Assembly: GCA_964454445.1 (NCBI GenBank)
Contig: CAYVTD010000013.1
Span: 1-62,140 of the forward strand
Length of the DNA: 62,140 bases
DNA from: an uncultured Hyphomicrobiales bacterium
GTDB lineage: Bacteria; Bacteroidota; Ignavibacteria; Kapaibacteriales; UBA2268
Direction of reading: 5' to 3'
A program made the translations under genes and the position numbers. Positions 9,012 through 50,016 of this stretch are shown here, piece by piece. Each line of letters starts with the position of its first letter. The stretch's first letter is position 1. The notes under the pieces were generated by a model. It was not told the origin of the DNA. It saw only the letters and a list, made by a program, of their open reading frames with translations, and did not search any database.

Positions 9012-11180
9012 ATGATAGGATTAATAATGAAAAATTTTCTTTTTTTTGTTTTACTTATAATTATAATATTCGCACCTGCATTATCTGAAGATAACGTACT
9101 TGATAGCCGCTATGGCATTTATGGTGCATTCAATTTCAATTTTCATTCTGCAGATTTCAACAAACTCAGAGATATACCAAATTGCTGTCCTCAATTTGAA
9201 AACGGCTCGGGAACAGGCTTGAATATTGGTGCTTTATATGAAGTGCCGCTAAGCAAGCAGCTTCTGCTTGGTTTTCGTTTTGGTTATATGACTCTTGATG
9301 GCGAATTGACGAATACTGAATCTACTTTAGTTATAGTCAATAGACGACTAGCAAGCGGCGAATTTACGCACACAATGATAGGTAAGTTTTCCAATATTGG
9401 CATAGAGCCATATTTTTCCTATCAGCTTTTTAATTATTTTTTTCTAGGTGTTGGTCTTCGTTTCGGAGCCAATCTGACAGCAACATACAACCAAAAGGAA
9501 GAAATTACAAAGCCTGCAAGCGTTGGTACATTTGCAGATTCACTTGGAAATGACACTTATAGCAGAACAAGAAATGTCCGCTCAGGAGATATTCCCGATG
9601 CTGTTTCTCCAATTAACCATTTGATATTTAGAGCGAATTACGATTTGCCACTTAATAAAGACAGATCTATGCTGTTGTCGCCTGAAATGGCTTTCTATGT
9701 TAGTTTAAACGAATTTGTCAAGGAAACAAGTTGGAAGGTCGGCACTCTTAGTTTGGGCTTGTCTATAAAGTATTCTCCGAAGTCTTTTCAAAAGAAAATC
9801 GAAGAGTTCAAGGAGGATATCATTATTGACACGATTCACATCGCCTCAGAAAACGTAAAGTCAGAGGAAATTGTCATTGGAAAGCAATTAAAGAGAACAA
9901 TAGTAAAAGAAACAGACGGTAAAATCGAAACAACAGACTTCATAAAAAGAACTGACACACTTCTCTATCCAAAAACTTATGAACTATCTGGCGATATTTT
10001 TCTTTTTGGAGTTGATAAAGATGGCCAAGAGATAGACAATCCCTTGTTTAAAATCGAAGAATTTGCATCGAACCGCTATCATCCATTGCTCAATTATATT
10101 TTCTTCGATGAGAATTCGTCAAATATTCCAGCGAGATATGTGCGCTTGAATGCGCAAGAAACAGATAATTTTTTTATTGATAGTCTTTATAATGAAACGA
10201 CTATTGAAGTTTATTTTCAATTACTTAACATTATCGGAAAGCGATTGGCGGAAAATGCAGATGCTAAACTAACAATAATTGGTTGCAATTCGGATATTGG
10301 CTTGGAAAAAGGGAATTCAGGATTATCTCTCAAACGAGCCGAGGCAGTAAAATCGTATTTGGTTGATGTATGGAAAATAAATGCAACCAGGTTGGAAGTT
10401 AAATCGAGGATTTTACCGGAAAAAGCATCATTTCCAGTTGAAGAAGAGGACAAGGCATCTGAAAATAGGCGGGTAGAGTTATATTCCGATAATTTCAAAG
10501 TTCTCGAGCCTGTCGTAATCGAAACAATCACTCGAACAGCAAATCCGCCAGTTGTCCGCTTCAAGCTAACAGCCAAGTCGGATACCGGTTTGGAAAAATG
10601 GAGAATTTATGCTACACAAACAAATATGGATAAAGACGAAAATTTTGAAAAAGTTGGCTCAGAGACTCTACCTGAAAAGGTGGATTGGCATCTTGAATCT
10701 TTTCAAAAATATATGCCTAGATATGCCCAACCAATTATTTATTCGCTCGATTTAACAGATAGAACTGGTAAAAATGAAAAAGTTGAAAAATCGTCGTCAG
10801 ATATGAATATCATATCAATAAAGCAAAAACGCATTCAAAAGATCGACGATTATGAAATCGAAAACTACAGTTTGATTCTATTTGATTTCGATAAAGCTGA
10901 TATCGAAGAAGGTAATAAAAGAGTCATTAACTTTATTTTAAGTAAAATAAAAGCATCTTCTCAGATTGAAATAAAAGGATATACTGACCGAACCGGCGAC
11001 GACGCATACAATAAACGGCTCTCGGGACGACGTGCGCAAGCTGCAAAAGCCGCCTTGAAACGACAAGATGCCATTTCGCTGGGTATTGGAGAGGATGTTT
11101 TGCTTTATGACAATGATCTGCCAGAGGGACGATTCTATTGCCGAACAGTCGAGGTAACAATAAAAACAAAAGTTGAATAG
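9012..11180 (+). CDS. OmpA-family outer-membrane protein with two OmpA_C-like peptidoglycan-binding domains
   Basis: Signal peptide. N-terminal region is beta-strand rich. The internal OmpA-like motif is LSLKRAEAVKSYL...NRRVELY and the C-terminal one is YTDRTGDDAYNKRLSGRRAQAAKAAL. The start could also be the ATG at 9027. Confidence 0.75.
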   Translation: MIGLIMKNFLFFVLLIIIIFAPALSEDNVLDSRYGIYGAFNFNFHSADFNKLRDIPNCCPQFENGSGTGLNIGALYEVPLSKQLLLGFRFGYMTLDGELTNTESTLVIVNRRLASGEFTHTMIGKFSNIGIEPYFSYQLFNYFFLGVGLRFGANLTATYNQKEEITKPASVGTFADSLGNDTYSRTRNVRSGDIPDAVSPINHLIFRANYDLPLNKDRSMLLSPEMAFYVSLNEFVKETSWKVGTLSLGLSIKYSPKSFQKKIEEFKEDIIIDTIHIASENVKSEEIVIGKQLKRTIVKETDGKIETTDFIKRTDTLLYPKTYELSGDIFLFGVDKDGQEIDNPLFKIEEFASNRYHPLLNYIFFDENSSNIPARYVRLNAQETDNFFIDSLYNETTIEVYFQLLNIIGKRLAENADAKLTIIGCNSDIGLEKGNSGLSLKRAEAVKSYLVDVWKINATRLEVKSRILPEKASFPVEEEDKASENRRVELYSDNFKVLEPVVIETITRTANPPVVRFKLTAKSDTGLEKWRIYATQTNMDKDENFEKVGSETLPEKVDWHLESFQKYMPRYAQPIIYSLDLTDRTGKNEKVEKSSSDMNIISIKQKRIQKIDDYEIENYSLILFDFDKADIEEGNKRVINFILSKIKASSQIEIKGYTDRTGDDAYNKRLSGRRAQAAKAALKRQDAISLGIGEDVLLYDNDLPEGRFYCRTVEVTIKTKVE

Positions 11181-15238: not shown

Positions 15239-17731
15239 ATGTCAAAAGGCGGCGGCGCAGGAAAAGTGTACTTTGTTCTCTATCTTGCTGTTGTTCTTGA
15301 GCTTTTGATTATTATCGTCGAGCGTGACGAAGCTGAAGAACACCTGTTGAAAAAGCAAAAAGAGACAATGAGGATTGTTGAAAGTATTCTCCAACAATTA
15401 CAATCAGGTTCGGGTACTGAAGGTATCAATACTCGACCACAAGACGAAATAACTTTTCTCCCTGAGGGTTTTAACTCACAGCAAGAATTAAATGTTGATA
15501 TTAAACAATATAGGAAATACATTGTCGAAGTTGGTGTAACAGATATAACTAATGAGTTAAAATGGGACAAGAACTCAGGCGAATCTCAAACAGATTTCAC
15601 CGTGCGACTGAAAAAACTAGTTAAACTTGCCAATGTTCAAGAGATTGAATATCAATTATTCTTCAATGATAGCGATGATCCAAATAATGCTCCAGCATTT
15701 ATTTCTGAAGATACAATAAAGAAAAATAGAATAGATTTCACAAAAATGACTGCCGGTGATGAAGTTTATGCGTGGGATGGCACTCCTTGGAAATTCTTGG
15801 GGCTAAGGAAGCTTGTCCTCGATGATGGATTAACCTATAACAATCTGTTAAAGAATCATAGTATCGAAAATCTTACTTCTGATATGATTGTTCCAGAATA
15901 TCCATTAAACAAACGGATAACTATTGGCCCAAATTTCGCGCCTAAAGACATTGATACTAACTTTATATTCCACTATACTGGTGATTTAGATAGTCTTGCT
16001 GATAATAAAATTATTAGCTCATCAACCTCGAAGAAAAGGTCATTCTTTGTTTATTTCGAACCACCACGCCAAGCCGGCTGGTACAAATTGAGATTTGCTT
16101 CGCAAACTAACAGAATTTTAGGTGTCAAATCTGATGCCAATTACGAAGAACTGCCTGAAAACACAACTGTAAATATTGGTACTGTCCAGCTTACAGTAAA
16201 GGATTTAAGGAAGGTTATGAAAGAGCTTACGTCTACTCTTGAAAAATATCGTGATTTTCTCCCCGATTTTGAGGCATTCGCCAGGGACAAAGACGTAGAA
16301 AAATTTAATATGGGTTTAGTAAAATGCAAATCGATGACAGATAAAAGGGAAGAAACGAATACCGAATCTAAGGAAATGCAAAGTAAAATTGATCTCTATG
16401 GCTATATTGCCAAACTTCTTGCTCCTGGTCAATCGATTAACTTTGATCAAAACCGTGGTTCGATTGAGTTTAATATTCGCGTTACAACTCTGAATATGCC
16501 GCCAACAAAACCAAGTGTTTCTGGTCTTCCAAGCTACATTGCTTGTTTCGACAAGTTGCCGCCAGTATTCGAATTTGAAATAGGTCCTTTCCAGGGAGTA
16601 GATAAAAATAAGGTTTTTGGTAGGGTGCTTAATTCTAAAGGCGTTGAAGTAGCAAAAATAAATTGCACTTTGTCGTCTCAACAGTCTGTCGTGGCAAGTG
16701 CTTCCTCAGAAATCGGGAAATCACGAAAATACATTGGCACCGTCGATAGGGTTCTTGATGTTGCAGAAAAGAACTATATTATTGAGATTACTCATAATAT
16801 GGGATCTCAGAAAGCCGCAATTGATTCGGCAGATCTCGAGATATTTCCTTCGAAGATTGTAAATGAAGCCGATGTAATGAATAACTTTTCCGGGAAATAT
16901 AGTAACTCATATTATGGCGAGAAAGTTAATGTGTCGTTCAAGCCAGCATCGGGAAACAAACTAATTCCCGAACAATTTAGAACTTATCTTTTTACAGATC
17001 AAGAAACACAGCCAGTGCCACAAAGAGGTTTTTCAAACAGTGTGAACTGCGATGCGAAGTCGAATAACATAACATTGAGATTTACTTGGGTTCAGCCATT
17101 TACAAATACCGAGATTGACTTGTATCCTCAGGTCTCTGAACCAATTAAGCAAAGGCCCCCAAGAATAAATCAAAACAATAAAAACAAATCAATAACCGGA
17201 CCAGAGAATAGGATTTTAGTTGTTGTTTCTGGTATTATCATACCTGGCAGTTCTACGGGTAGCGCCGATAAACCTAAATCTGAAGTTGTTGTTGATAAAA
17301 CTATTAAAGTCAATACAGATAATCTTCTTAATGTAAAATCCTCAACAGCTTCGCCTGTAAGAGTAATAGAAGAAGGAGACGATAAATACAAGTTCTCATT
17401 CGAGTTGAGTGTCAAAATGGCTGATATGAAAAACTCAATAGATGGCAATTTAAGTTTTGGAGTTTCTGCTTATTCAATTAATCCTGTAAATAACAAATCA
17501 TCGGATAGAGAAACTGTTACAGTTACAATCCCAATGGATGATTTTTCACCCGATGGATTAGGTAGCTCCGGAGGCAGTTCTGGAGTTCCGGGCGGTAGAG
17601 GTTTACCTTCAAGAGGTAGTGGCGGCGGGACCCCACCACCTCCAGGCGGCGGTAGTGGCGGCGGAAGTGGGACCCCACCACCTCCAGGCGGTGGTAGTGG
17701 CGGCGGGACCCCACCACCAAGAGGAAGATAA
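15239..17731 (+). CDS. Large inner-membrane-anchored periplasmic protein with a GldM/PorM-like N-terminal TM motif (assignment tentative) and a Gly/Pro-rich repetitive C-terminal tail
   Basis: Short cytoplasmic N-terminus (MSKGGGAGK) and one TM helix VYFVLYLAVVLELLIII (compare GldM/PorM MINLMYLVFIAMLAL). A helical segment follows, then a large beta-rich periplasmic region. The tail is GGGTPPPPGGGSGGG repeats. AGGA Shine-Dalgarno upstream and a 335-bp AT-rich upstream region. Confidence 0.4.
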   Translation: MSKGGGAGKVYFVLYLAVVLELLIIIVERDEAEEHLLKKQKETMRIVESILQQLQSGSGTEGINTRPQDEITFLPEGFNSQQELNVDIKQYRKYIVEVGVTDITNELKWDKNSGESQTDFTVRLKKLVKLANVQEIEYQLFFNDSDDPNNAPAFISEDTIKKNRIDFTKMTAGDEVYAWDGTPWKFLGLRKLVLDDGLTYNNLLKNHSIENLTSDMIVPEYPLNKRITIGPNFAPKDIDTNFIFHYTGDLDSLADNKIISSSTSKKRSFFVYFEPPRQAGWYKLRFASQTNRILGVKSDANYEELPENTTVNIGTVQLTVKDLRKVMKELTSTLEKYRDFLPDFEAFARDKDVEKFNMGLVKCKSMTDKREETNTESKEMQSKIDLYGYIAKLLAPGQSINFDQNRGSIEFNIRVTTLNMPPTKPSVSGLPSYIACFDKLPPVFEFEIGPFQGVDKNKVFGRVLNSKGVEVAKINCTLSSQQSVVASASSEIGKSRKYIGTVDRVLDVAEKNYIIEITHNMGSQKAAIDSADLEIFPSKIVNEADVMNNFSGKYSNSYYGEKVNVSFKPASGNKLIPEQFRTYLFTDQETQPVPQRGFSNSVNCDAKSNNITLRFTWVQPFTNTEIDLYPQVSEPIKQRPPRINQNNKNKSITGPENRILVVVSGIIIPGSSTGSADKPKSEVVVDKTIKVNTDNLLNVKSSTASPVRVIEEGDDKYKFSFELSVKMADMKNSIDGNLSFGVSAYSINPVNNKSSDRETVTVTIPMDDFSPDGLGSSGGSSGVPGGRGLPSRGSGGGTPPPPGGGSGGGSGTPPPPGGGSGGGTPPPRGR
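17617..17722 (+). repeat. GC-rich ~42-bp tandem repeat (about 2.5 copies), in frame, encoding GGSGGG(S)GTPPPPGG
   Basis: ggtagtggcggcgg(aagtgg)gaccccaccacctccaggcgg recurs three times. It is strikingly GC-rich within an AT-rich genome and forms the C-terminus of the 830-aa protein. Confidence 0.8.
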
Positions 17732-17817
17732 TTATTATTATGCTAATGAAGAACTAAAAAAATTGACGATATAATTTAAAAATAATAATTTTTTATAGTA
17801 ATAGGGAAAGAATTATA

Positions 17818-19617
17818 ATGAGAGGGAAAAGAATAAGGTTAATTATCTCCATAGCTGCCTTGCTGATTTTTTCTCAATCTGCTCCACCATTAAAAGCTAA
17901 TGACGCTATAAATGACCCCGAAATCGAGCGGATTTTGAGAAGCTTTAAAAATTATCGCTTCAGCAATGTGTCTTTGTATGCTTATGATGAGATATCAATG
18001 CCTTTCGAGCAACTAAAAAAAGCTGTCGAATCGTTTTCAAATACTAGAAAAGGTGGCGCTACAGCAGTAACAGACGAGACAGTCAAAAATGCCTGCACTA
18101 GTCTTAGTGCTTCGGCAGGCAGAGATATTTGTCTTGAGATTGAATCTGCTATAAAAGGTGGGCAAAGCTGCCAGCAGGTGTTTAATAGCTTTAGCCAGCA
18201 AGGTATTGCTCTTAATCAAAATGAATTTGAAACCGCTTGTAGTTTTTACGATGAACAAATAAACAAGCGTTCAAATGAAGTAGTAATGCGACATGCTTAT
18301 ATCGTTACTTCAAGGCCTACTAAACAAGGGGACAATCCAAGTGAAATATATGCTTTGATTGTATCATATAATAGAAAAGATGGTTTGGAAGATAATCTTG
18401 AATCTGCTAACGCAGAAGAAATTTTTACAAAATATAGATTAAAGAATATTAAGCTTGACCCCGGAGAATTCGAAGGTGCTACCAGCTTCTATGAACTAAT
18501 TGAAAGATCACTACTCCAAGGATTAGTAACTAATAGCACACCAGATATGCAAGGTATTGGTTTCTATGATTTTACTCCACGAAGCAACAATATGACTAAT
18601 ACCCTTGAAATTGACCCAGCTACTATTCAAACTTATGACCTTCAGAAATATGTTATGCTTTCTGAAGGCAGTACTTATTTTAGTGAGAATTTCAATCAAC
18701 TTATACTTAGCCCAGATTTAATATCTTGGAAAAAATACAAGGATGTGAGTTGGTATCATGCCGAATATACCGACGAGAATGGGCAAGTTGTGAAATATCA
18801 AGCATATCCATCAAATTTTAATTTACCGGATATAGGCTTAGAAATCAGTTATGGCATAAATGACATCAATATCCCATCTTTTTGGAGCGAGCGAATTACT
18901 GCTTCAGCATTATGGCAAAGCGTAAAATTAGGCATTATTCTTCCTACTGCAGGCTACTCAAGCATAATGAAAGATGCTTTCGATCAAGACAGGACCTTGA
19001 CCAATGCCGGATTTGGTATTGCTGGAGAACTCGATTTTCCAATAGGTTTAGTAAAAAATAGTGGCGTTTTCCATATTAGTGCTGCTTTGAACTTCGGTGA
19101 TGCCGTTATTGCTGACTACAAGAATAGACCTAAAGATCCTTTGCTGATAGATAGTTCTTATTTTATACGTGGTGCAGATTTTTATGACTATCTCATAAGG
19201 GGAAATGCAACTGTACACTATACTTTTGGGCTGGCAATCGACCAAGATTATTGGATGCGTTTCCATATGGGCATATCGTATTACAATGTAGAGTATTGGT
19301 TTAATGATATTAAAACAGATCCAGTAACACAAGTGCAAAAGTTCAAATACATAGAATATAAAGATGAAAGTATTGTAGGGATTTCCGGTAAATTGGAGTT
19401 TATGTCCACAAACACAACCACACCTTTTGGTCTATCGTTATCCTATTTTGATGCAGCACTCGGAGCTAACGTATGGATGCAGATACCAATTGTTGAAAAC
19501 ACTTTTGCTTTGAAATTAGAAGGTAATGGTTACTTTGCTGCATTCCGAGATAATTTGCATAACTGGGAACGTAATAGCGTGTTTATACCGATGTTAAGGT
19601 TTATGGTTTACTTTTAG
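17818..19617 (+). CDS. Outer-membrane protein: periplasmic N-terminal domain plus C-terminal beta-barrel (paralog A)
   Basis: Signal peptide. The C-terminal half has amphipathic beta-strand periodicity (GFGIAGELDF, ATVHYTFGLAI, FGLSLSYFDAAL) and a terminal aromatic ...MLRFMVYF typical of OMP barrels. Confidence 0.55.
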   Translation: MRGKRIRLIISIAALLIFSQSAPPLKANDAINDPEIERILRSFKNYRFSNVSLYAYDEISMPFEQLKKAVESFSNTRKGGATAVTDETVKNACTSLSASAGRDICLEIESAIKGGQSCQQVFNSFSQQGIALNQNEFETACSFYDEQINKRSNEVVMRHAYIVTSRPTKQGDNPSEIYALIVSYNRKDGLEDNLESANAEEIFTKYRLKNIKLDPGEFEGATSFYELIERSLLQGLVTNSTPDMQGIGFYDFTPRSNNMTNTLEIDPATIQTYDLQKYVMLSEGSTYFSENFNQLILSPDLISWKKYKDVSWYHAEYTDENGQVVKYQAYPSNFNLPDIGLEISYGINDINIPSFWSERITASALWQSVKLGIILPTAGYSSIMKDAFDQDRTLTNAGFGIAGELDFPIGLVKNSGVFHISAALNFGDAVIADYKNRPKDPLLIDSSYFIRGADFYDYLIRGNATVHYTFGLAIDQDYWMRFHMGISYYNVEYWFNDIKTDPVTQVQKFKYIEYKDESIVGISGKLEFMSTNTTTPFGLSLSYFDAALGANVWMQIPIVENTFALKLEGNGYFAAFRDNLHNWERNSVFIPMLRFMVYF

Positions 19618-19664
19618 TGGAAATAATTTTTGAATAATCAGTAGGAAAATAAAAGGCATACAAA

Positions 19665-21179
19665 ATGATGAAAAAAATCAAAATAACAGTTTTATTAGTA
19701 GCGTTTTTCCTCATCGGATTGAGCAATATTCAAGCTCAGTATTTTCAACCTGAACAGGAAAAACTGCAAACAATAAAGGATTTATCAACTCTTGATTCTA
19801 GTATAAGCAGGTATTTCCCGAGATGGAAGGTTTGTGAAGATAATTTAAAAGTTTCAATTTATCAGGCATTTGTGCTTAGTGGCGCAGATAAAGAGCTACT
19901 CGATATGCAAGACATTAGGATACTTGCCGCGCCGAGGCCAATAGGCAGCAATATACCTTTTACTATTTTATTAATTGAATGTGGCAAAGCTTCGATGAAT
20001 TCTGTTGAAGTCGAACGCAATCTTGGTGGTAGGTTAATAGGCTTTATTGCCGGACAATATCCCTATATCCAATATACAAAAACTCCTGGTATGGCACTTA
20101 GGAACGAATATATTGATAATAGAGACTATTGTTACGAAACAATACCAGCAGATATTCCTGTCAATGAGAGCCAAATGACAGCTATTCAAGGTTATCTCGA
20201 ACCAATCAATGTTCACCATGCCTTTACTGTGTCTTTATTTGAACAGAGTTTGAAAATTGGCAATACTGGATTTTGGCTTAAGGCAACTATGGGTAACGAT
20301 GAGATTGGTTATCCATTCTGGTCATCAGGCGAAGCAGGGATTACCTTGTCAAGACCTTTATATGTAAACGAGAATCCTAAATATAAACGAATGTTTCCAT
20401 ATCTTATTAATGCTCATATAGGAGCCGGTTACAGAATCTCTAGCGGTGTTGGCAATGATAGCGAAATACTTGGCTGGATAAAACAGAGGAAATTGAATTC
20501 TGGTCCTTATGGAAAATTGCATGCCGGTTTCGATATTAGTTTGCCACAACATCCATTTTTTGGTCTTAGTGCAAATGCTATACTTCCTTTTGAATCTTTG
20601 AAAACCAAGAGTATAGATGAATCTGACTATACTTATTATTCTATTGTTAATCCAAAAACGGGATTGCCAAGAGTAACTCCCAGCATTTATTTCCCAAGTG
20701 AAGTCGCTGAGTTTTATAATACAGTAGCTCCAGTATTAACATCTTCAGGGCAGGTTGCATTTTTTTATTATTGGATGCCAAATATGAATAATCCTGAAAA
20801 CTTTTTTAGGGTTGACCTTGGCATTTGCTATACAGAAGTACAAGAGGTTGGTGCTTATAGAATATTTACTAATGAATATAAGGAATTTACTCAATCCTTC
20901 AATATGTCACCTGATTTGTTTGACGGATTAAAGATGTACCATCCGACAGAATTTGGTGACTGGTTCTTTTTTAAATTGCAATATAGGAATCAAGCAGCTT
21001 TTCCATTTGGTATGAGTTTGCAATATTCTAACCAAATGCTCTTGGGCAGAGTCTATATCCCACTACTTGGCGATTGGCTTTACCTTGATGCAAAATATGC
21101 AACTCCTCTAAGAGGTGTTCGTCCTTATGAAAACCAAAGTTTCTATGTGATTTCTCCTTTGCTTAGGATTACGATCTAA
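19665..21179 (+). CDS. Outer-membrane protein: periplasmic N-terminal domain plus C-terminal beta-barrel (paralog B)
   Basis: Signal peptide and the same architecture as the upstream gene. The C-terminus SFYVISPLLRITI aligns with NSVFIPMLRFMVYF of paralog A, and both share an internal FWS-containing motif. Confidence 0.55.
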   Translation: MMKKIKITVLLVAFFLIGLSNIQAQYFQPEQEKLQTIKDLSTLDSSISRYFPRWKVCEDNLKVSIYQAFVLSGADKELLDMQDIRILAAPRPIGSNIPFTILLIECGKASMNSVEVERNLGGRLIGFIAGQYPYIQYTKTPGMALRNEYIDNRDYCYETIPADIPVNESQMTAIQGYLEPINVHHAFTVSLFEQSLKIGNTGFWLKATMGNDEIGYPFWSSGEAGITLSRPLYVNENPKYKRMFPYLINAHIGAGYRISSGVGNDSEILGWIKQRKLNSGPYGKLHAGFDISLPQHPFFGLSANAILPFESLKTKSIDESDYTYYSIVNPKTGLPRVTPSIYFPSEVAEFYNTVAPVLTSSGQVAFFYYWMPNMNNPENFFRVDLGICYTEVQEVGAYRIFTNEYKEFTQSFNMSPDLFDGLKMYHPTEFGDWFFFKLQYRNQAAFPFGMSLQYSNQMLLGRVYIPLLGDWLYLDAKYATPLRGVRPYENQSFYVISPLLRITI

Positions 21180-21196
21180 TTGGGATTGATTTATAA

Positions 21197-21243
21197 AATA
21201 CTCCCTATAACAACTGTATGCCTTGTTGGGGAGTATTTTTTTT
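21197..21243 (+). terminator. Rho-independent terminator (long stem-loop with inner helix)
   Basis: AATACTCCC ... GGGGAGTATT outer stem, with an AACAA/TTGTT inner stem, followed by a T8 run. It lies 18 bp after the stop at 21179. Confidence 0.55.
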
Positions 21244-21263
21244 AACATTGGCGTATTGACAAA

Positions 21264-22598
21264 ATGAAACGAACTCTTTTTATTATTATCTTTTCTTTGC
21301 TTTTTTTAGCTAAAGCTTTTTCCATCGAAGGAACTGTTGATGCCGATTCGCTCGACAGAGCTTTGAAATTAGCTCAAGAAGCTAAAATTCAAGCTGTTCA
21401 AAAGGAAATTGAAATAACTATAAGAAATGTTGATATTTCAAAATTTCCTGAGATTAATGTTATTATCGAGGCATTTAACAATTTAGGACAACCCTTGGAT
21501 TCATTAAGCCCTCAAAGCTTGACTGTATTGGAAAATGGCGTAGTGAAAAAGATAATTTCTGTAAAAAGGCTTTCTACAAATGAACGTGTTCCCGTAGACT
21601 TTGTCTTTTTAATTGACAAAACAGGTACGATGCAAAACTATATGAACTCTGTTATGAGCAATATTACTAGCTTTGCCACATCGCTGATGGCTCGAGGTAT
21701 TGATTATCAGATTGGACTTATTTTGTTTACTGACACTGTGGACGAGATCTATCAACCATCAAATAACGTTCTATCTTTTCTTAATTGGTTACGTCCTGTA
21801 AAAGCCACTGGTGGACACGATATCAAAGAGAATGCTTTAGAAGCTTTAGAAGCAGTCACACGTGATATAAAATTCCGTCCATCTGCTAATAAGGTCGTTG
21901 TTTTAATAACTGATGCCCCTTATCATCAAAAGGGCGATAAGGGAGGATATGGGATTACCGACCAGACAACAAGTTCAATAATTGATTTACTTGTTAAGAA
22001 TGAAGTGCGCGTTTTTGCCATTGTGCCACCGGGTTTAAAAGAGTATCTAACTATAAGTGAAAGTACTCGTGGAAAGATGTATAACATAGATTATCCATTC
22101 GCAACTGTTCTAGATAATTTCTCAAATCAGCTTACTAATCTTTTTGCTTTAAAATATCTTACTGAACTCGAAGCCATACCGGATTCGATTGATATCTCGC
22201 TTATTAACGAACAAAAGCAAGAGCTTGTCAGGAAAACTATCCCCATTGTTGAATTAGGAAGAAAACTTATAATCGAGAATTTGCTTTATGAAACCAACAG
22301 TGCCTTGCTAGCAGATTCTATACCTGAACTTAATGTTTTATATGAATTTATGAACAACAAGAAAAACGTTAAGATACTTGTCGAAGGGCATACTGATTCA
22401 AGGGGTAGCCACGCTATTAATGATGTGCTATCGTTGAGACGCGCAGAAAGTGTAAAAGAATATCTTGTTAAAAAAGGCGTAAACCCCGACAGAATTGCAA
22501 CTATCGGATATGGTAAACGCAAGCCCATTGCAAGTAATAATACTGCTTTTGGAATGAAGCTTAACCGTAGAACTGAGATAGTAATTGTTGCAAAATAA
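21264..22598 (+). CDS. Periplasmic vWA-domain protein with C-terminal OmpA_C-like peptidoglycan-binding domain
   Basis: Signal peptide. The vWA region has a MIDAS-like DKTGT...VVVLITDAPYH. The C-terminus VEGHTDSRGSHAINDVLSLRRAESVKEYL...NRRTEIVIV is a classical OmpA domain. Confidence 0.75.
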   Translation: MKRTLFIIIFSLLFLAKAFSIEGTVDADSLDRALKLAQEAKIQAVQKEIEITIRNVDISKFPEINVIIEAFNNLGQPLDSLSPQSLTVLENGVVKKIISVKRLSTNERVPVDFVFLIDKTGTMQNYMNSVMSNITSFATSLMARGIDYQIGLILFTDTVDEIYQPSNNVLSFLNWLRPVKATGGHDIKENALEALEAVTRDIKFRPSANKVVVLITDAPYHQKGDKGGYGITDQTTSSIIDLLVKNEVRVFAIVPPGLKEYLTISESTRGKMYNIDYPFATVLDNFSNQLTNLFALKYLTELEAIPDSIDISLINEQKQELVRKTIPIVELGRKLIIENLLYETNSALLADSIPELNVLYEFMNNKKNVKILVEGHTDSRGSHAINDVLSLRRAESVKEYLVKKGVNPDRIATIGYGKRKPIASNNTAFGMKLNRRTEIVIVAK

Positions 22599-22608
22599 TA
22601 TTTTTTTC

Positions 22609-24093
22609 TTAGCTTACTCTTTCACGCTCTTTAATTATGTAATCGAAGAGTTCCTGAACGAAATCAGAGACAAGACAGTATTTCTCTGGTTCCACTTTAA
22701 CACCGTTTAAATACAGAAATCGGACATAATCACCTTGCTCATCGATTTCAGGTATGATACCTACAAAGAAAAATCCCAATTTCTCTGCTTCTTTATACAT
22801 TGTAGCAGTATCCGGATGCGACATTGGAAGGTCGAGAAAGTTAATCTCGATTTTCTTTTCGATGAGTTCTGCAAGTCTATGCTTGAGCATTGCAGAAAAA
22901 TCATATCCATAATTGATGACACAAATATATGACATTTGTATTGATTCAATGATTTTCAAATTAGCTTCTGTGATTTCAGGAATTATCAGTTTGCCACTTG
23001 CAACACCATAAGTTCTATTAAAATTGTTTCTTTTATATATCTTATCAATTATTGTCTGGTGTCTGTGTGGGATATAGACGATGCGATTTGGTTCGGGATT
23101 AGTCCTAAGATAAAAGAATACTACGGATTGGCGAAAAGGGACGGCACCCTCATCTTGAATCTTTTTAAAATTCATAGAATCAGGAATAAAACACAATAGA
23201 AAGCCAGTTTCATAAGCTCCTATGGAAAGATTGCCTTTTTGGGTGTATGGGTGAACTGTTACGGCTTCGCTATAAACCCCGTAAAGGCCAACTTGCTGAG
23301 CATATTCGACCATAAAGCTTTTCATTCTTTTAAACAAATTATGTCCTCGATAACGTGGATCGACAACTGCCTGACCAGAATCTGCCACTTTTGCTCCAAT
23401 TGATGGATATGCCAGAGCAAGATGCCCAACAATTTCTTTTGTATTTTTATCAATGGAAATTACCGATTTAACGATACCACTTTCCAAGTTTTCACGAATT
23501 TTATCGGGGTAATATATTGAATCAAGAGCATAAGAATAACCATAGCTGCGGTAAACACATCTTGCCATAGCAGTAGCATCATCAGGAGTCATAAAACGAA
23601 GTTCGATATCCGCACTTTCGAGCCTGGTTTTGTCCATTTCTTTCAATTCTTTTTTCTCTTGCTCGGTAAGTGTATCGCTGATGATTTTGTAAGGAATATT
23701 TTTGATTAATTCAACACATTTACCATTTTTGCCGAGATTTAAAAAAGTAACTTCGTCGGTCATTCCCCGGATAAGTTTTATTCCCATACCTTCTGACTTG
23801 CCTTGTTCGACTTGCCGGAAATCGACAGGAAGTCCTTTGTCAAAAACTAGCAAGACAACTTGGTTGGGCCGTCTTTCTAAAACAATGTCGAGTTCTCCTT
23901 TTTCATCGGGATCGAAAGCGTGTTCTATTACATTAAGTGATGCTTCCTCGAGTGCAAGCCGCATGCGGAGAGTGTCTTTTTTATCGAAACCGATGATTTT
24001 TAGCATACTTTCGAAGAAATCCAGAGCCGGTCCGAGAGCCTGGGTCTCTGCAGGTATTGATAATTGAGCTAAAGGTTTGTTTATATCAGGCAT
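22609..24093 (-). CDS. Fusion protein: RsbW/SpoIIAB-like HATPase_c (anti-sigma-factor kinase-like) N-terminus plus tandem GNAT acetyltransferase-like domains
   Basis: N-box-like EEASLNVIEHAF and G-box-like SEGMGIKLIRGMTDE in the first ~140 aa. It is followed by GNAT motif-A-like VDPRYRGHNLFKRM and a second GNAT-like repeat. Confidence 0.55.
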   Translation of the reverse strand: MPDINKPLAQLSIPAETQALGPALDFFESMLKIIGFDKKDTLRMRLALEEASLNVIEHAFDPDEKGELDIVLERRPNQVVLLVFDKGLPVDFRQVEQGKSEGMGIKLIRGMTDEVTFLNLGKNGKCVELIKNIPYKIISDTLTEQEKKELKEMDKTRLESADIELRFMTPDDATAMARCVYRSYGYSYALDSIYYPDKIRENLESGIVKSVISIDKNTKEIVGHLALAYPSIGAKVADSGQAVVDPRYRGHNLFKRMKSFMVEYAQQVGLYGVYSEAVTVHPYTQKGNLSIGAYETGFLLCFIPDSMNFKKIQDEGAVPFRQSVVFFYLRTNPEPNRIVYIPHRHQTIIDKIYKRNNFNRTYGVASGKLIIPEITEANLKIIESIQMSYICVINYGYDFSAMLKHRLAELIEKKIEINFLDLPMSHPDTATMYKEAEKLGFFFVGIIPEIDEQGDYVRFLYLNGVKVEPEKYCLVSDFVQELFDYIIKERERVS

Positions 24094-38674: not shown

Positions 38675-39634
38675 ATGCTTGAAAAAAAAATTCGCGTTTT
38701 GATAGTTGATGATCAAGCATTGGTTCTTGATATTCTAGCAAGGGGATTAGCAAAAGACCCATCAATATTAGTAGTAGGCACAGCGACAGATGGTCAGCTT
38801 GCACTTAATCAGATAGACCGAGTAAATCCGGATGTAATAATTCTCGACCTTGAGATGCCACGTATGAACGGGATACAGTTTTTGCATCATCTTATGCCTG
38901 TAAATCCGATTCCAACAATAGTTTTGAGTGCTTTAACCCAGAATAATTCGAAGGTTACCGTAGATGCTTTCGAGGCGGGTGCTTTCGATTTTCTTGCAAA
39001 ACCAAGCGGTGGAGCACGAGCTTTGTCTGATTTGTTAAATCAATTATGGACAAAAATCAAAATTGCTGCAACTCAAGATAGAAGGCAGCTAAAAAAGAGT
39101 AATCTTGGCAAGTCTTTGCCTTCCAATGCTCTCGACAGAAAGGCAGTAACAAATAAAAGCATTCTTGGAATGGGGGCTTATGAAACATCAAATGACCCTG
39201 GAAAAGATTTGAAAATCTATGCTCTAGGTTCTTGTGTCGGGCTAGCTATGTTTTGTCAAGGAATGCCTGCTGTAAGTCTTGCTCATATAGTCTTGCCTGC
39301 ATCAAAATCGGATACTGACAAAGCCCAAAAACTACCGGGTTATTTTGCTGATACTGCGGTTGATGTTATGGTTATGGGAATGCTGCAAAAAGGTTGTCCA
39401 AAGCAAGCTTTGTATGCCAAAATGGCTGGTGGGGCAAAAACGAACGTCGATATCGGCGATTATTTTGGTATTGGGCAACGCAACGCTGTTGCAGTGAAAG
39501 CAGCATTGATAAAACAGGGGATAAAAGTAGTAGCAAGCGACCTTGGAGGCGAAATATCTAGAACTGTTACTATATCGGCTGGTAAAAGCAATATGAGGCT
39601 TTACCATCCTGACAAGGGAGATTGGGATTTATAG
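38675..39634 (+). CDS. Receiver domain fused to a CheD-like chemoreceptor glutamine deamidase domain
   Basis: N-terminal REC domain VLIVDDQ...ILDLEMPRMNG. The C-terminus has IYALGSCVGLAMF and AHIVLP (CheD Cys/His) and GGAKTN...GQRNAVAVKAAL...DLGGEISRTV, matching CheD. Confidence 0.65.
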   Translation: MLEKKIRVLIVDDQALVLDILARGLAKDPSILVVGTATDGQLALNQIDRVNPDVIILDLEMPRMNGIQFLHHLMPVNPIPTIVLSALTQNNSKVTVDAFEAGAFDFLAKPSGGARALSDLLNQLWTKIKIAATQDRRQLKKSNLGKSLPSNALDRKAVTNKSILGMGAYETSNDPGKDLKIYALGSCVGLAMFCQGMPAVSLAHIVLPASKSDTDKAQKLPGYFADTAVDVMVMGMLQKGCPKQALYAKMAGGAKTNVDIGDYFGIGQRNAVAVKAALIKQGIKVVASDLGGEISRTVTISAGKSNMRLYHPDKGDWDL

Positions 39635-41276: not shown

Positions 41277-42776
41277 TTAATCATATATAAAATACTCGCT
41301 TTTTTTACCCCGTTTATCTACAGCTCTTGCTCGAAATCGAAAGGGTTGATCATCTTTCAAAGGAGTTAACATAAAAAACTGCTTATTACTATTACGTTTT
41401 AAGTTATCAGATTGAATATTTGGGAAATACTCCTGCCATTTTGCATTACCGATTATTTCAATATCAGTTACTAAATTCTTTTCACCTCTGTATAATCCTT
41501 GCGAAACAATTTCAAACGTGATTAACCGAGCGCTTTTTTCATTGAAATTAGCAATCGAGGGAGGTGGCAAGGGCATAATTTTTATGGGATAAGTCTGCCC
41601 GATCTTTTTTCCATTAACATATCTTTCTATGGACACGGTTTTGTCGATAAGATCAGTATTGGGCGTATATTCGAAAGTCGAACCTTGCCGACTTGTAAGG
41701 ATTATATTGTTGTCCACAGTAAGCACAACTTTTACATCTTGTCCGGGTAAAGAGGGGAGCTTTGGATCGATGGTATAAGTGTTGTCAGGATACATTTCTG
41801 CGTCGTAATCTGGCTTGAAAAGAGGTTCTGGGATTATGCTAAAGTCAGTCATTACTTCCCGTTTATCATATTTTCTCGTAAGTTTAAGCTTGACGTTTGT
41901 TCTACCTGATGATGGGGTAGTGCCACTAAGTTTTATTTCATTGGCTGTAATGCCAGAAATATAGGCATTCCCGGCACCTGAAACGGCTAATTCGGGCAAT
42001 TCGGCAAGGTCTTTCTGCGGGTTTAGTCCAATGACAATTATTCGGTTTTCCCATTGTTGATTGGCAATGCTTCTCAAGGGTGAATGGACTGTATAAAGCG
42101 ACATATCCCCAGTATAAAATTCAGAATTAGTTCTTAAGTCTGCTTTTGTGGAATTAGCTTTCGCAGAATCGGCGGCCAAATCGACATTGTCGGAAGGCAA
42201 ATAAATAACATTACCTGGTCGATTAACATAAACAGCGAGACGAAATTGAGCCTTCTTGACTATTGTCGGCAGAGTCGAGCTACCGGTTTTTTCTAGCAAG
42301 CTGTCCGACAAGTTGGTAGGATTAGCCCTTGCTGTAACGTTTACGATGTAGTTTTTATTCCTTCTTTCGTAAATGGGAGGTTTCCAATAGAACTTAACGA
42401 GATTGTTATCTAAGTTATGAGTTATATTGAAATCGCTCGATTCATAATCTTTGTCTGTTTCAAGCATTATACTGTTGTTAGTTTCCTCGTCGGTTATTGT
42501 AAAGAGCATCTTTACATTTTTGACTGCGCCAGAATAATGAATTGTGTTTTCGGCATCAAATTCAGAGATCCTTACACCCGAAGAATCGATATATAGGCGA
42601 CAGCTCAGGGAGGGTTTAACAGGATTAATAATAAAGCCGGCACTAGTTTCGTCGAAAGCATCTTTATTGCCTTTTTTGTCATTATGCAAATCAGGCAATA
42701 TTAGAATCAAGGCAGCCAAATAGAGGATAAAATAAACCTCTACCGGACCGCGTTTTTTTATTAATGTCCTGCTCAT
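41277..42776 (-). CDS. Inner-membrane-anchored periplasmic protein with GldM/PorM-like N-terminal TM motif (paralog of 15239..17731; tentative)
   Basis: MSRTLIKKRGPVEVYFILYLAALILIL shares the VYF(V/I)LYLA core with the 830-aa protein. One TM helix is followed by about 470 aa of beta-rich (Ig-like?) periplasmic sequence. Encoded 54 bp downstream of the GldL-like gene. Confidence 0.4.
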   Translation of the reverse strand: MSRTLIKKRGPVEVYFILYLAALILILPDLHNDKKGNKDAFDETSAGFIINPVKPSLSCRLYIDSSGVRISEFDAENTIHYSGAVKNVKMLFTITDEETNNSIMLETDKDYESSDFNITHNLDNNLVKFYWKPPIYERRNKNYIVNVTARANPTNLSDSLLEKTGSSTLPTIVKKAQFRLAVYVNRPGNVIYLPSDNVDLAADSAKANSTKADLRTNSEFYTGDMSLYTVHSPLRSIANQQWENRIIVIGLNPQKDLAELPELAVSGAGNAYISGITANEIKLSGTTPSSGRTNVKLKLTRKYDKREVMTDFSIIPEPLFKPDYDAEMYPDNTYTIDPKLPSLPGQDVKVVLTVDNNIILTSRQGSTFEYTPNTDLIDKTVSIERYVNGKKIGQTYPIKIMPLPPPSIANFNEKSARLITFEIVSQGLYRGEKNLVTDIEIIGNAKWQEYFPNIQSDNLKRNSNKQFFMLTPLKDDQPFRFRARAVDKRGKKSEYFIYD

Positions 42777-42830: not shown

Positions 42831-43613
42831 TCACTCGATTTTACTCGAGATTAGTTTTTCAAGCTCTTGTTTTACAGCTAATTGGATTTCTTCGCGTTTT
42901 ATTTTTTCAGCAGCTTTGTTCAATTCGTTTACAGTATGATTTAATTGTGAAAGCGCCTCGTTAGTTAATTTCATTGTTTCGAGCATCTCGGGATTGGGCG
43001 ACACAGCGTCGGAGGCAGATTTGGCAATAAGTTGCAAAGCATCATTAGTTCGGCTCTGGGTAGAGGCAATGATGCTGAAATTTTCGTTGATACGCTCAAT
43101 CTGAATTATTGCTCCGGCAAGGTCTTTTGCAATTTCACCAATCTCGAGCAAAAGCTCGGCGGCATTTTCGCGTTCATTGTCCTTGTCTTTATCTGAAAAA
43201 TCGTCTTTTGGTGTGAAAAACATCACAACAAACATAAAAAACAGCAAGCAGGATTCGAGTGCCAAAGCGGCGATTATTGCTGTGTCGCTGATACTATTGC
43301 TAAATCTTCTGACACCTATTAATAATAGCAAGATTGATGCACCGAAATAAACGAATGAGTTAATGGAAGAGAAATAAAACCGATTTAGGATTTCTTCCAT
43401 CCACAAACCGGTGCCTCGAAAAAAGCCTAATGGATGCAGTACGCTGACATTTCTATTAAGATAAGGGCTCAGATCTCTTTCGTGAACGCTAATTTTCCAG
43501 CATTGGATCAAAGTGCTGAAGGCACTGTATTGCCTGCTGTAACGGAGCTCCTTGAAAATTTCATTGATAAGCGTCCTGCCTTGCATAGAGGATAAAGTAT
43601 CGATTTTGTCCAT
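42831..43613 (-). CDS. GldL/PorL-like membrane protein (two TM helices plus cytoplasmic coiled-coil domain; tentative)
   Basis: TM1 FVYFGASILLLLIGV and TM2 AIIAALALESCLLFFMFVVMFF contain a membrane-embedded Glu. A helical domain rich in A/E/L/K follows. The ATG at 43613 avoids overlap with the upstream gene (the track start at 43691 overlaps by 64 bp). Confidence 0.4.
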   Translation of the reverse strand: MDKIDTLSSMQGRTLINEIFKELRYSRQYSAFSTLIQCWKISVHERDLSPYLNRNVSVLHPLGFFRGTGLWMEEILNRFYFSSINSFVYFGASILLLLIGVRRFSNSISDTAIIAALALESCLLFFMFVVMFFTPKDDFSDKDKDNERENAAELLLEIGEIAKDLAGAIIQIERINENFSIIASTQSRTNDALQLIAKSASDAVSPNPEMLETMKLTNEALSQLNHTVNELNKAAEKIKREEIQLAVKQELEKLISSKIE

Positions 43614-43627
43614 AAATTTTTCGTTTG

Positions 43628-44707
43628 TTAAGTCTTTGTTTTTAATAAAACGATAAGTCCAAAAATAAAGAATAAAATGTTTGCTAGCCATCCAGTCAGC
43701 ATTTCATCTAATCCGGCAGAAAAGCCAATGGTTTGGCTTATTTTTGTAAAAACCAGATATAGAAAAGAGATAATCATAGCGGCGCCGATTTGAATTGCAA
43801 GACCTCCTTTTTTTCTAACTGAAGCAAAAGGCACTCCGAACAAAATTACAATAAAATTTGCGAATGGAAAGGCATAATTGCCATGATACTCTATTTGCTG
43901 CCTGCGTATATCTTTGCCGCCCATCTTTAATAGCTCTATATACTGTTTAATTTCATCGAAATTCATTTCGCTGGGCGATCGTTTTAACTGAATTATTTTG
44001 TTGTGTGTTATATTAAGAGAAATTTCGAGGGAATCGAACCTGTCCGAGCTTATTTTGCTGTTATTGATGTAGCGAATAATGCCTGAGCGGGCAATCCATT
44101 TATGTTTGTCATCTGACCAAATAAGCCTGTCTGTTTCAATTCTTTGACTTATTCTTGGTTGTTTCTCGGAAGTATAATCTTCAATAGTAACGCGAGTTGC
44201 TGACTTAGTTCTTTCGTCGTAATATTGCATTATTACGTTTCTCAAGGGTTTATCGCGGAAATAAATATTATAAAGCCCCATACCGCTAGAGCTTTTTCCG
44301 AGATATACTCTCTCAAGCTCGATTTTTCGCTCGTTTGCCTTAGGTACTATCCAACCGTTAAAATAAAGTTGGGCAAAACTTAAAACGATGCTGAACAAAA
44401 CAAGAGGTATCATTAGCCGGTAAAGGCTCAAACCTCCTGATTTCATTGCAGTTATTTCGTTCATTGTAGAAAGCTTGCCAATAGTGAACAAAGTAGCAAG
44501 CAACATCGCTACGGGCGTCATAATTGACAATATATATGGGAAAAAATTAATATAATATTCGACTATTTCTAAAATACCCGCATTGTGGTCGATGAAATCG
44601 TCGAGTGTTTCCATCAGATTGACTATTAAAAAGATTAGGCACAGAGCTATTAATGAGAATAATAATGTCGAAATTAATTGTCGTAATATATATCTATCAA
44701 TTAGCAT
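43628..44707 (-). CDS. LptF/LptG-family LPS export permease (YjgP/YjgQ)
   Basis: N-terminal MLIDRYILRQL signature and six TM segments with a large periplasmic beta-jellyroll insert. Only one copy is in the window. Confidence 0.85.
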   Translation of the reverse strand: MLIDRYILRQLISTLLFSLIALCLIFLIVNLMETLDDFIDHNAGILEIVEYYINFFPYILSIMTPVAMLLATLFTIGKLSTMNEITAMKSGGLSLYRLMIPLVLFSIVLSFAQLYFNGWIVPKANERKIELERVYLGKSSSGMGLYNIYFRDKPLRNVIMQYYDERTKSATRVTIEDYTSEKQPRISQRIETDRLIWSDDKHKWIARSGIIRYINNSKISSDRFDSLEISLNITHNKIIQLKRSPSEMNFDEIKQYIELLKMGGKDIRRQQIEYHGNYAFPFANFIVILFGVPFASVRKKGGLAIQIGAAMIISFLYLVFTKISQTIGFSAGLDEMLTGWLANILFFIFGLIVLLKTKT

Positions 44708-49284: not shown

Positions 49285-50016
49285 TTAGCGAGAAATACTA
49301 AAAGTTCCTTTATTTACAATGTTTTTCTGGCGGCTGATGATGTAATAATAAACACCGGCAGAAAAATCTCTTGTTTTCAATGTCAATACATCACCATTTA
49401 TCTGATAATTGGCATTATCAATTCTGTTGGCGTGAGAATTATAGACTTCGATGTCCAATCCAGATAAATCTGAAATAGAAGGAAGTGATATATTTATATA
49501 ATCGTTAGCAGGATTGGGGAATACAGGCGCACTCGATTGGGTGGTTAATTCTAAAACGGAAGTGGTGCCTACGTTGTATGAGCACTCGTAAGCCACATAA
49601 TCGTCTTCGTTAACCATAAAGTAAAACTTGACTTTCGATGTGCCGAATTTCCCGTTTGGATAAAGATGCACGAACAATTCTAATCCGTTTTCTGCTGTGG
49701 TCGATTCTCCAGGTTCCAGAGAAAACACTTCATCAGGTCGGTCGTAAATGGTAACAGGCGGAAAGAACTGACGGCACTCGAAATTGAAGCATGGGCTGAG
49801 AGTGTGCCCATCGACTAGACTAATTGTCTCGATTTTGATATAAATTGTTACTTTATGGTTGCTAATGTTTTTCACATCGCCATAAGAAACAAGCTCGTTG
49901 GTTAAGGTGCCGCTTACAATTTCGTCTCCACGAATTAGCTCGAGGCTTTGTGATTTTGCATTAAAAGATGCAAGAATAAATAGAAGGCAGATTGTATATA
50001 GTAGATTTTTCATCAT
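49285..50016 (-). CDS. Small secreted protein with T9SS C-terminal sorting domain
   Basis: Signal peptide. The C-terminus FPNPANDYINISLP...LDIEVYNSHANRI...SAGVYYYIISRQ...KGTFSI matches Por_Secre_tail. Confidence 0.7.
   Translation of the reverse strand: MMKNLLYTICLLFILASFNAKSQSLELIRGDEIVSGTLTNELVSYGDVKNISNHKVTIYIKIETISLVDGHTLSPCFNFECRQFFPPVTIYDRPDEVFSLEPGESTTAENGLELFVHLYPNGKFGTSKVKFYFMVNEDDYVAYECSYNVGTTSVLELTTQSSAPVFPNPANDYINISLPSISDLSGLDIEVYNSHANRIDNANYQINGDVLTLKTRDFSAGVYYYIISRQKNIVNKGTFSISR

Follow-up and report, generated by a model that had tools for sequence, protein, structure and literature searches.

A conserved four-gene cassette of Kapabacteria and a proposed cell-envelope assembly of its products

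We describe a cassette of four consecutive genes, g1 to g4, in a 62,140-nucleotide stretch of DNA from an uncultured bacterium of the Kapabacteriales (NCBI GenBank assembly GCA_964454445.1, contig CAYVTD010000013.1, positions 1 to 62,140 of the forward strand), which we call the window. The cassette encodes a predicted inner-membrane stalk protein (g1), two paralogous secreted proteins with predicted outer-membrane barrels (g2 and g3) and a secreted protein with a vWA domain and an OmpA domain (g4). We judge the chances to be about even that the four genes encode one lineage-specific cell-envelope assembly, in which g1 is coupled to an inner-membrane partner encoded elsewhere. The general kind, an inner-membrane-anchored, periplasm-spanning protein combined with outer-membrane barrels and an OmpA-type wall anchor, is already known; g1, g2, g3 and the cassette itself are in no curated family, solved structure or paper of the library that we searched.

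The cassette and its conservation

The four open reading frames (ORFs) all lie on the forward strand and coincide exactly with those from which the initial annotation of the window had proposed a trans-envelope apparatus:

15239-17731, forward strand: g1, 830 aa, predicted bitopic inner-membrane protein (ORF call, exact match)
17818-19617, forward strand: g2, 599 aa, secreted, with a predicted C-terminal outer-membrane barrel region (ORF call; no Pfam or PDB sequence match)
19665-21179, forward strand: g3, 504 aa, secreted, with an N-terminal alpha/beta domain and a predicted beta-barrel
21264-22598, forward strand: g4, 444 aa, secreted non-lipoprotein with vWA and OmpA domains (Pfam scores above cut-offs)

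Intergenic gaps of 86 (g1-g2), 47 (g2-g3) and 84 nt (g3-g4) separate the genes in the window, and the corresponding medians across loci are 52, 36 and 93 nt. An AT-rich stretch of 336 nt lies upstream of g1, and the gene 3' of g4 is convergent on it. The predicted sites of the products are the inner membrane, the periplasm with its peptidoglycan and the outer membrane, in agreement with the first proposal that they occupy all layers of the envelope.

The window's g1, g2 and g3 have no match in Pfam or NCBIfam, and no Pfam or NCBIfam family was found for their relatives when these were scanned singly (23 for g1, 34 for g2 and 35 for g3). With three of the four proteins outside both collections and all relatives annotated 'hypothetical', the claim that the set matches no described system is supported; searches of the literature on gliding and motility of Kapabacteria and on GldM of the type IX secretion system (T9SS) of Ignavibacteria likewise yielded no account of the cassette. 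Two known kinds of locus that might have accounted for it were rejected by gene content. The cassette and its conserved neighborhood contain no MoxR ATPase, DUF58 protein, membrane-anchored vWA protein of the BatA/BatB kind or TPR protein, which excludes a Bat/aerotolerance operon, and a TonB-dependent uptake locus is ruled out in the same way.

More than 659 homologues of g1 were found, about 760-780 aa long and 40-65% identical, all from metagenome-assembled genomes (MAGs) labelled Kapabacteria, Ignavibacteria, Chlorobiota or Bacteroidota, and all carriers of the family found in the search were MAGs. In a scan of one genome per GTDB species, 285 species genomes encoded a g1 relative, among them the closed genomes CP058732.1, OW818676.1, OY761611.1 and OW818654.1. 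Kapabacteria and their relatives have a wide distribution that includes sediments, mats, soils and reactors; the cassette-bearing MAG MS-B_bin-24 (locus L041), for example, is covered by metatranscriptomes of a hot-spring mat (PMC6338057).

Gene order was compared by tblastn across the 82 loci fetched by that stage. The order g1-g2-g3-g4 is kept in every sufficiently long locus: g2 follows g1 wherever the locus reaches beyond g1, and g4 is found in all sufficiently long loci of the core clade, always after g3. The co-occurrence of the four genes is thus without exception within that clade. When all ORFs within +/-10 kb were compared, only g1-g4 were conserved and the flanks varied from locus to locus. 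Measured against the window proteins, median identities are 43% (g1), 37% (g2) and 44% (g3), and g4, at 58%, is the most conserved gene of the cassette.

An exhaustive hidden Markov model (HMM) search also recovered divergent g1 variants of 541-702 aa, likewise from Kapabacteria-labelled MAGs. At one such locus (L084, 10001-18678) a 641-aa g1-like anchor is followed by three proteins of the g2/g3 type, two of them g2-like and one g3-like, and by a g4 orthologue of the vWA-OmpA type. The divergent variants keep the same logic, namely a g1-like anchor with two or three proteins of the g2/g3 type, with or without g4. Because gene order is conserved, the flanks are unrelated and divergent variants exist, the cassette is a self-contained ancient module that consists of one anchor, at least two paralogous outer-membrane proteins and usually a vWA-OmpA protein. 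Such a clade-wide cassette, with three products outside curated families, likely marks a core envelope function.

The predicted stalk protein g1

In the AF2 model of g1, built on an alignment of 119 sequences (mean predicted local distance difference test score, pLDDT, 85.5), a nine-residue N-terminus leads into a transmembrane (TM) helix at residues 10-27, which together with a heptad-patterned extension forms one continuous helix over residues 6-57. It is followed by a mixed alpha/beta region (about 68-335), a helical hairpin (about 340-400), about four immunoglobulin (Ig)-like beta-sandwich domains (405-765) and a tail that is disordered in the model (775-830). A Foldseek comparison of the model with the PDB matched only tandem cadherin and Ig ectodomains, and the alpha/beta region has no specific PDB neighbor. 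As Lys3 and Lys9 precede the TM helix and the segment ERDEAEE follows it, the topology is predicted to be N-in, with the body of the protein in the periplasm. Two parts of g1 are listed separately:

15239-15463, forward strand: g1 residues 1-75, near-invariant N-terminal module (GKVYFVLYLAVVLELLIIIVERDEAEE...) with the TM helix 10-27, Glu21, R29, D30 and the heptad helix (alignments A1 and A2)
17549-17728, forward strand: Gly/Pro-repeat tail of g1, residues 771-830, disordered and lineage-specific (pLDDT <50)

Conservation within the g1 family is concentrated in this N-terminal module, where the pairwise identity is 90% over residues 1-75, compared to 47% over residues 76-770. In the TM helix (VYFVLYLAVVLELLIIIV), which contains no Ser or His, the majority residue occurs in 99% of sequences; Y11, F12, Y15, E21, R29 and D30 are invariant in both alignments A1 and A2, and E28 is kept in at least 90%. 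The shorter variants of 541-702 aa retain the module, and the segments at about 261-335 and 384-418 are also well conserved. Near its end g1 has a further conserved motif, which is acidic ([YF]-E-P-E). Near-invariant TM helices with a buried Glu and juxtamembrane charges are typical of helices that work within membrane complexes, such as those of MotB, ExbD, TolR and GldM. A resemblance to type IV pilins was rejected by inspection of the N-terminus, where Glu21 lies 13 residues after Gly8 rather than at position +5 and the motif G|F(T/S)LxE is lacking.

The Gly/Pro tail had been read as a periplasm-spanning spacer similar to that of TonB. Apart from the window protein, the closest relative (P0002) alone has this tail; the other members have a short basic C-terminal tail instead. 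It is unconserved and located at the extreme C-terminus, not between an anchor and a C-terminal domain, and the spacer reading is accordingly not upheld.

g1 and the GldM/PorM family

The initial annotation had called g1 GldM-like, and the tests of sequence, profile, fold and linkage do not support that identity. The Pfam and NCBIfam models of GldM matched neither g1 at E<=1 nor any other of the 23 members of alignment A1 (g1 and 22 relatives). Among all PDB sequences, the g1 family profile recovered no GldM or PorM chain at E<=10, even though the library contains such chains, and the hhalign comparison of the family profile (A2) with Flavobacterium johnsoniae GldM, whose sequence was confirmed against PDB 6ys8_A, gave a probability of 0.7%. 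Published structures show the first domain of GldM, D1, as an all-helical bundle. The membrane-proximal domain of the g1 model is alpha/beta, not a helical bundle, and g1 does not show the GldM fold of an all-helical D1 and three Ig-like domains, with GldM/PorM as structural neighbors. Genes for GldL, GldK and GldN had been reported missing in cis, and indeed none is linked to the cassette within +/-10 kb in any of the 82 loci.

Two features of the original comparison survive in part. Like GldM/PorM, g1 is predicted to be bitopic and N-in, and its TM helix is strongly conserved. The TM helix itself resembles that of GldM at about 4 of 9 positions, in the pattern K-x5-Y-L-[VA]; the likeness lies below profile detection and is too short to carry weight. 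Because the sequence, profile, fold and linkage tests fail and the TM likeness is limited to these positions, g1, as judged from its sequence and model, should not be filed as a member of the GldM/PorM family nor called GldM-like. What remains is an architectural analogy, a conserved TM helix followed by a predicted Ig-like stalk. The analysis thereby corrects an attractive but unsupported annotation.

The outer-membrane proteins g2 and g3

Both g2 and g3 have cleavable signal peptides without a lipobox Cys, and their paralogy, noted earlier from their C-termini, is confirmed by profile-profile comparison: residues 387-590 of g2 align with residues 271-493 of g3 by hhalign with a probability of 91.5% (E 8.7e-7). 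The g2 and g3 HMMs also cross-match each other's paralogues in variant loci. The structure model of g3 combines a beta-barrel of about 14 strands (residues 186-503) with an alpha/beta domain at the N-terminal side (about residues 32-160), which is conserved and has conserved cysteines at positions 57, 106 and 156. The N-terminal region of g2 is poorly conserved. The g2 C-terminus is aromatic (...MVYF, with F as the last residue), and we infer from the homology with g3 that its C-terminal region is also an outer-membrane barrel.

It had been suggested that the two proteins be compared with PorV/FadL-like barrels. The top structural neighbors of the g3 barrel model are in fact FadL, Omp33 and PorV, together with the substrate channels OmpG, CymA, KdgM, FapF and TodX, but membership by sequence was not found: neither Pfam Toluene_X nor PorV matches g2 or g3 of the window, the 34 g2 orthologues or the 35 g3 orthologues, and the g2 and g3 profiles have no match among PDB sequences. 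The g3 model thus shares with the 14-stranded FadL/PorV/OmpG class a transmembrane barrel of about that size, while sequence identity to the class is 5-11%. Its members also lack the additional N-terminal parts of the cassette proteins, the conserved domain of about 130 aa in g3 and the region of roughly 300 aa in g2.

The vWA-OmpA protein g4 and the hairpin that precedes it

The proposed fusion of a periplasmic vWA domain to an OmpA domain is confirmed by Pfam, with scores of 77.1 bits for OmpA (cut-off 27.2) and 36.7 bits for VWA (cut-off 23.8). The domains and the hairpin located between g3 and g4 are:

21195-21243, forward strand: terminator-like hairpin in the g3-g4 gap (AAAATACTCCC...GGGAGTATTTT followed by a T-run), fold z-score -2.3
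21597-22085, forward strand: vWA domain of g4, residues about 112-274, with a metal ion-dependent adhesion site (MIDAS)
22290-22565, forward strand: OmpA-like peptidoglycan-binding domain of g4, residues about 343-434

An alignment of 17 orthologues defined residue conservation in g4. A signal peptide, with no lipobox or other lipoprotein signature, is followed by a conserved N-terminal beta segment, the vWA domain, a conserved linker (...IPIVELGRKLIIENLL...) and the OmpA domain. Conservation includes the MIDAS-type residues D118-x-T120-G-(S/T), E189 and T216-D217, in which Thr takes the position of the first Ser, and D118, T120, T216 and D217 are invariant; judged by these residues, the MIDAS-type metal site is intact. 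In the OmpA domain D378, R393 and N434-R-R-T-E438 are invariant, and residues of this type are typical of peptidoglycan contact in OmpA/Pal domains. From its sequence, g4 should be a periplasmic protein that binds peptidoglycan and a protein ligand.

The hairpin is real, with a T-run after the inverted repeat. Its long loop made a simple terminator scan miss it, and the region has no Rfam match. A hairpin at or below -8 kcal/mol followed by at least five T is present in the g3-g4 gap of 44 of 64 loci, and the stems differ yet compensate between loci (TTGCCCCACTG/CAGTTGGGGCAA, TCCCTACCCG/CGGGTAGGGA and CCTCCATTTCA/TGAAATGGAGG). The element is probably a conserved terminator or attenuator that tunes the expression of g4 relative to g1-g3. 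It had been taken to weaken the linkage of g4 to the other genes. The caveat is valid, but the linkage is not weakened, since g4 shows the highest conservation of the four and is invariably found after g3 in the core clade.

A GldL/GldM-like pair downstream

A 499-aa bitopic protein (41277-42776, reverse strand) and a 286-aa ORF (42831-43691, reverse strand) had been named as a GldM-like and GldL-like pair, the GldL-like candidate being located 19.5 kb from the cassette. The layout stands: as in GldL, the 286-aa ORF combines a coiled-coil tail with two TM helices, the second of which contains a Glu (...ALALESCLLFF...). Similarity does not, as neither protein matches the GldL/GldM models or, in a PDB sequence search, the solved GldL, GldM, PorL and PorM sequences. 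Because of an overlap with the end of an LptF/LptG gene, the true start of the 286-aa ORF is probably internal. A metagenome scan for relatives of the 499-aa protein found identical copies only, and outside the window no locus links the pair to the cassette.

The TM helix of the 499-aa protein starts with VEVYFILYLAAL and has the motif VYF[VI]LYLA in common with g1; in relaxed form the motif occurs in no other ORF of at least 100 aa in the window and the first 82 loci. This is a single observation and a lead that both TM helices may bind to partners of one kind. That the organism has a T9SS follows from two window proteins that bear its C-terminal sorting domain (Por_Secre_tail/TIGR04183; 10-2307, forward strand, and 49285-50016, reverse strand). 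Recognizable gldKLMN genes are not found within the window.

Proposed assembly and alternative explanations

We now turn to the assembly that the four proteins could form together. In the proposed arrangement, g1 would be anchored N-in, probably oligomerizing via the heptad helix that follows its TM segment, and would project its novel alpha/beta domain and about four Ig-like domains across the periplasm. The outer-membrane end would be formed by g2 and g3, as FadL/PorV-like barrels with N-terminal soluble domains. The OmpA domain of g4 would bind peptidoglycan while its MIDAS would hold an acidic ligand on another component, bracing the assembly to the wall. Because the TM and juxtamembrane segment of g1 is near-invariant and has a buried Glu, its helix would be at work within a complex of the inner membrane whose genes lie elsewhere in the genome; the most plausible candidate is an ion-driven stator like ExbB, TolQ, MotA or GldL. 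Much as TonB, TolA or GldM do, g1 would then pass force or a conformational change on to the barrels. Interactions among the four proteins, the spanning of the periplasm and the energization would all belong to such an arrangement, whose output may be transport, secretion, surface motility or envelope maintenance. Should the Glu-bearing helix couple to an ion-driven stator, the cassette would be a new architecture beside TonB, Tol, GldLM and Agl-Glt, and a compact system in which to study the evolution of energy coupling between the inner and outer membranes.

Several observations weigh against this assembly. No motor, ATPase or stator gene is linked to the cassette within +/-10 kb in any locus. 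The least conserved part of g1 is its distal Ig-like domains, which would presumably contact the outer membrane, and the length of g1 ranges from 541 to 830 aa among the variants, which is awkward for a periplasmic span of fixed length. The barrel of g2 is derived only from its homology to g3. The conserved terminator-like hairpin sets g4 apart transcriptionally, and at one variant locus (L083, 10001-14812) a 541-aa anchor is followed by two g3-like proteins with no adjacent g4. The buried Glu21 could also serve oligomerization instead of ion coupling.

A more specific form of the same arrangement treats the cassette as the outer part of an undescribed ion-driven trans-envelope machine. The Glu21-bearing helix would be the rotor or plunger of a stator encoded elsewhere, maybe the protein at 42831-43691, whose neighbor has the VYF[VI]LYLA motif, and force would travel along the Ig-like stalk to two barrels that form a heteromer, with g4 as a vWA-OmpA strut for bracing on peptidoglycan. 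We regard this as unlikely. If true, it would define a new class of energized envelope apparatus in Kapabacteria and their allies, for secretion, surface movement or outer-membrane transport.

The absence of a linked motor or ATPase is also what one would expect if the cassette were a passive tether or integrity module that, functionally like Lpp, OmpA and Pal, staples inner membrane, peptidoglycan and outer membrane together with no energy input. The peptidoglycan-binding OmpA domain is the most conserved element, the Ig-like chain resembles a spacer, and a clade-wide presence is like that of a housekeeping function. However, a tether leaves unexplained the 99% conservation of the TM helix, the invariant buried Glu and the juxtamembrane charges, and the variable length of g1 speaks against a precise spacer. 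We consider a purely passive role improbable.

The T9SS substrates encoded in the window, the VYF[VI]LYLA motif that g1 has in common with the 499-aa neighbor of the GldL-like gene, the general GldM-like architecture of a TM helix followed by Ig-like domains, and the presence of PorV among the top structural neighbors of g3 are all consistent with a different origin, in which g1 is a divergent GldM/PorM paralogue that plugs in trans into the GldL-like protein at 42831-43691, and the cassette is an alternative outer branch of the T9SS or gliding machinery that replaces GldK and GldN. This descent is decidedly doubtful. Neither Pfam/NCBIfam, the PDB profile search nor hhalign (0.7%) connects g1 to GldM, its membrane-proximal domain is alpha/beta rather than a helical bundle, and the downstream pair lacks GldL/GldM similarity and is unlinked to the cassette elsewhere.

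The structural neighbors of g3 also bring to mind a route for the uptake or export of a hydrophobic or polymeric substrate, in which the FadL-like barrels would be channels and g1 and g4 periplasmic receivers or chaperones. The top neighbors are substrate channels (FadL, OmpG, CymA, KdgM, FapF and TodX), and two paralogous barrels suggest a hetero-complex or two specificities, but the proteins do not belong to the FadL/PorV family by sequence, and no transporter, enzyme or regulator is conserved together with them, which makes a dedicated transport route very improbable. Finally, that the four are merely co-located and co-regulated envelope proteins that form no single physical complex is scarcely credible: the terminator-like element in the g3-g4 gap and the variant without an adjacent g4 are in its favor, whereas the gene order stays the same even at loci with unrelated flanks and a g1 only 37-65% identical to that of the window, as is typical of interacting products.

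Comparison with known systems

Of the known systems, we compared the proposed assembly with three trans-envelope machines. The GldL/GldM (PorL/PorM) core of the T9SS and gliding machinery, with PorK/PorN, PorE and PorP/PorV, is alike in having a bitopic N-in protein with a conserved TM helix and an Ig-like chain directed toward the outer membrane, and an OmpA-type peptidoglycan binder, here by analogy to PorE; both systems occur in the Bacteroidota/Chlorobiota superphylum. The differences are that GldM/PorM has no sequence, profile or specific fold similarity to g1, with its alpha/beta membrane-proximal domain, and that PorE has a TPR/propeller region where g4 has a vWA domain. In the T9SS motor the protonatable residue sits on GldL, whereas in the cassette it is on g1 itself (Glu21).

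The TonB-ExbBD and TolA-TolQR-Pal systems likewise combine a single N-terminal TM anchor bearing one or more conserved polar residues, a periplasm-spanning body, barrel partners and an OmpA/Pal-type component, and the gene for the partner stator may be located elsewhere, as it is for orphan TonB paralogues. In contrast to TonB and TolA, g1 has neither a TonB_C domain nor TolA domain III (no Pfam match), and it lacks the SxxxH/SHLS motif. The TonB/TolA spacer is Pro-rich or helical, while that of g1 is a predicted Ig-like chain with the Gly/Pro tail C-terminal to it and unconserved. The cassette barrels have about 14 strands (g3 model), as opposed to 22 in TonB-dependent transporters, and no exbBD or tolQR genes are found near the cassette.

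The Agl-Glt machinery of Myxococcus xanthus comprises the barrels GltA/B/H/K, the TonB-like proteins GltG/J and the vWA adhesin CglB (PMC9946355, PMC11761067). It is alike by component types, with homology not expected: both have paralogous barrels, bitopic periplasm-spanning proteins and a vWA-domain protein. The adhesin CglB is a lipoprotein of the cell surface, whereas g4 should be periplasmic, since it is no lipoprotein and includes a peptidoglycan-binding domain. At least 17 proteins make up the Glt system, to which the AglRQS motor is added, and the cassette has four genes.

The published closed kapabacterial genome Ch6 carries the cassette (locus L024), and the description of the organism is that of a flagellated, chemotactic bacterium that lacks type IV pili, not of a gliding one (PMC7509429). 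A role as a flagellar accessory, similar to MotY or the T-ring, is neither supported nor excluded: none of the loci has flagellar genes linked to the cassette, and the OmpA matches are generic.

Neighboring genes and source records

Upstream of the cassette lies a gene for a 722-aa OmpA-family protein with two OmpA-domain stretches (9012-11180, forward strand), which is not kept beside the cassette in other genomes. The gene that converges on g4 (22609-24093, reverse strand) encodes a 494-aa protein with an N-terminal RsbW-like anti-sigma-factor kinase domain (HATPase_c_2); its other 350 or so residues have only a weak match to an N-acetyltransferase domain (NCBIfam, E 0.021). Chemotaxis genes at 38675-39634 (forward strand) and 57540-58799 (reverse strand) encode, respectively, a CheB-type receiver-CheD fusion and a CheR with C-terminal TPR repeats.

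Three of the cassette-bearing records (L036, L037 and L057) are labelled Chloroherpeton, a label that could not be verified. Many other MAG records with the cassette (L003, L008, L011, L012, L015, L019 and others) are titled 'uncultured Hyphomicrobiales bacterium', and one (L043) is titled 'Desulfobulbaceae bacterium'; these Hyphomicrobiales and Desulfobulbaceae titles are almost certainly taxonomic mislabels.

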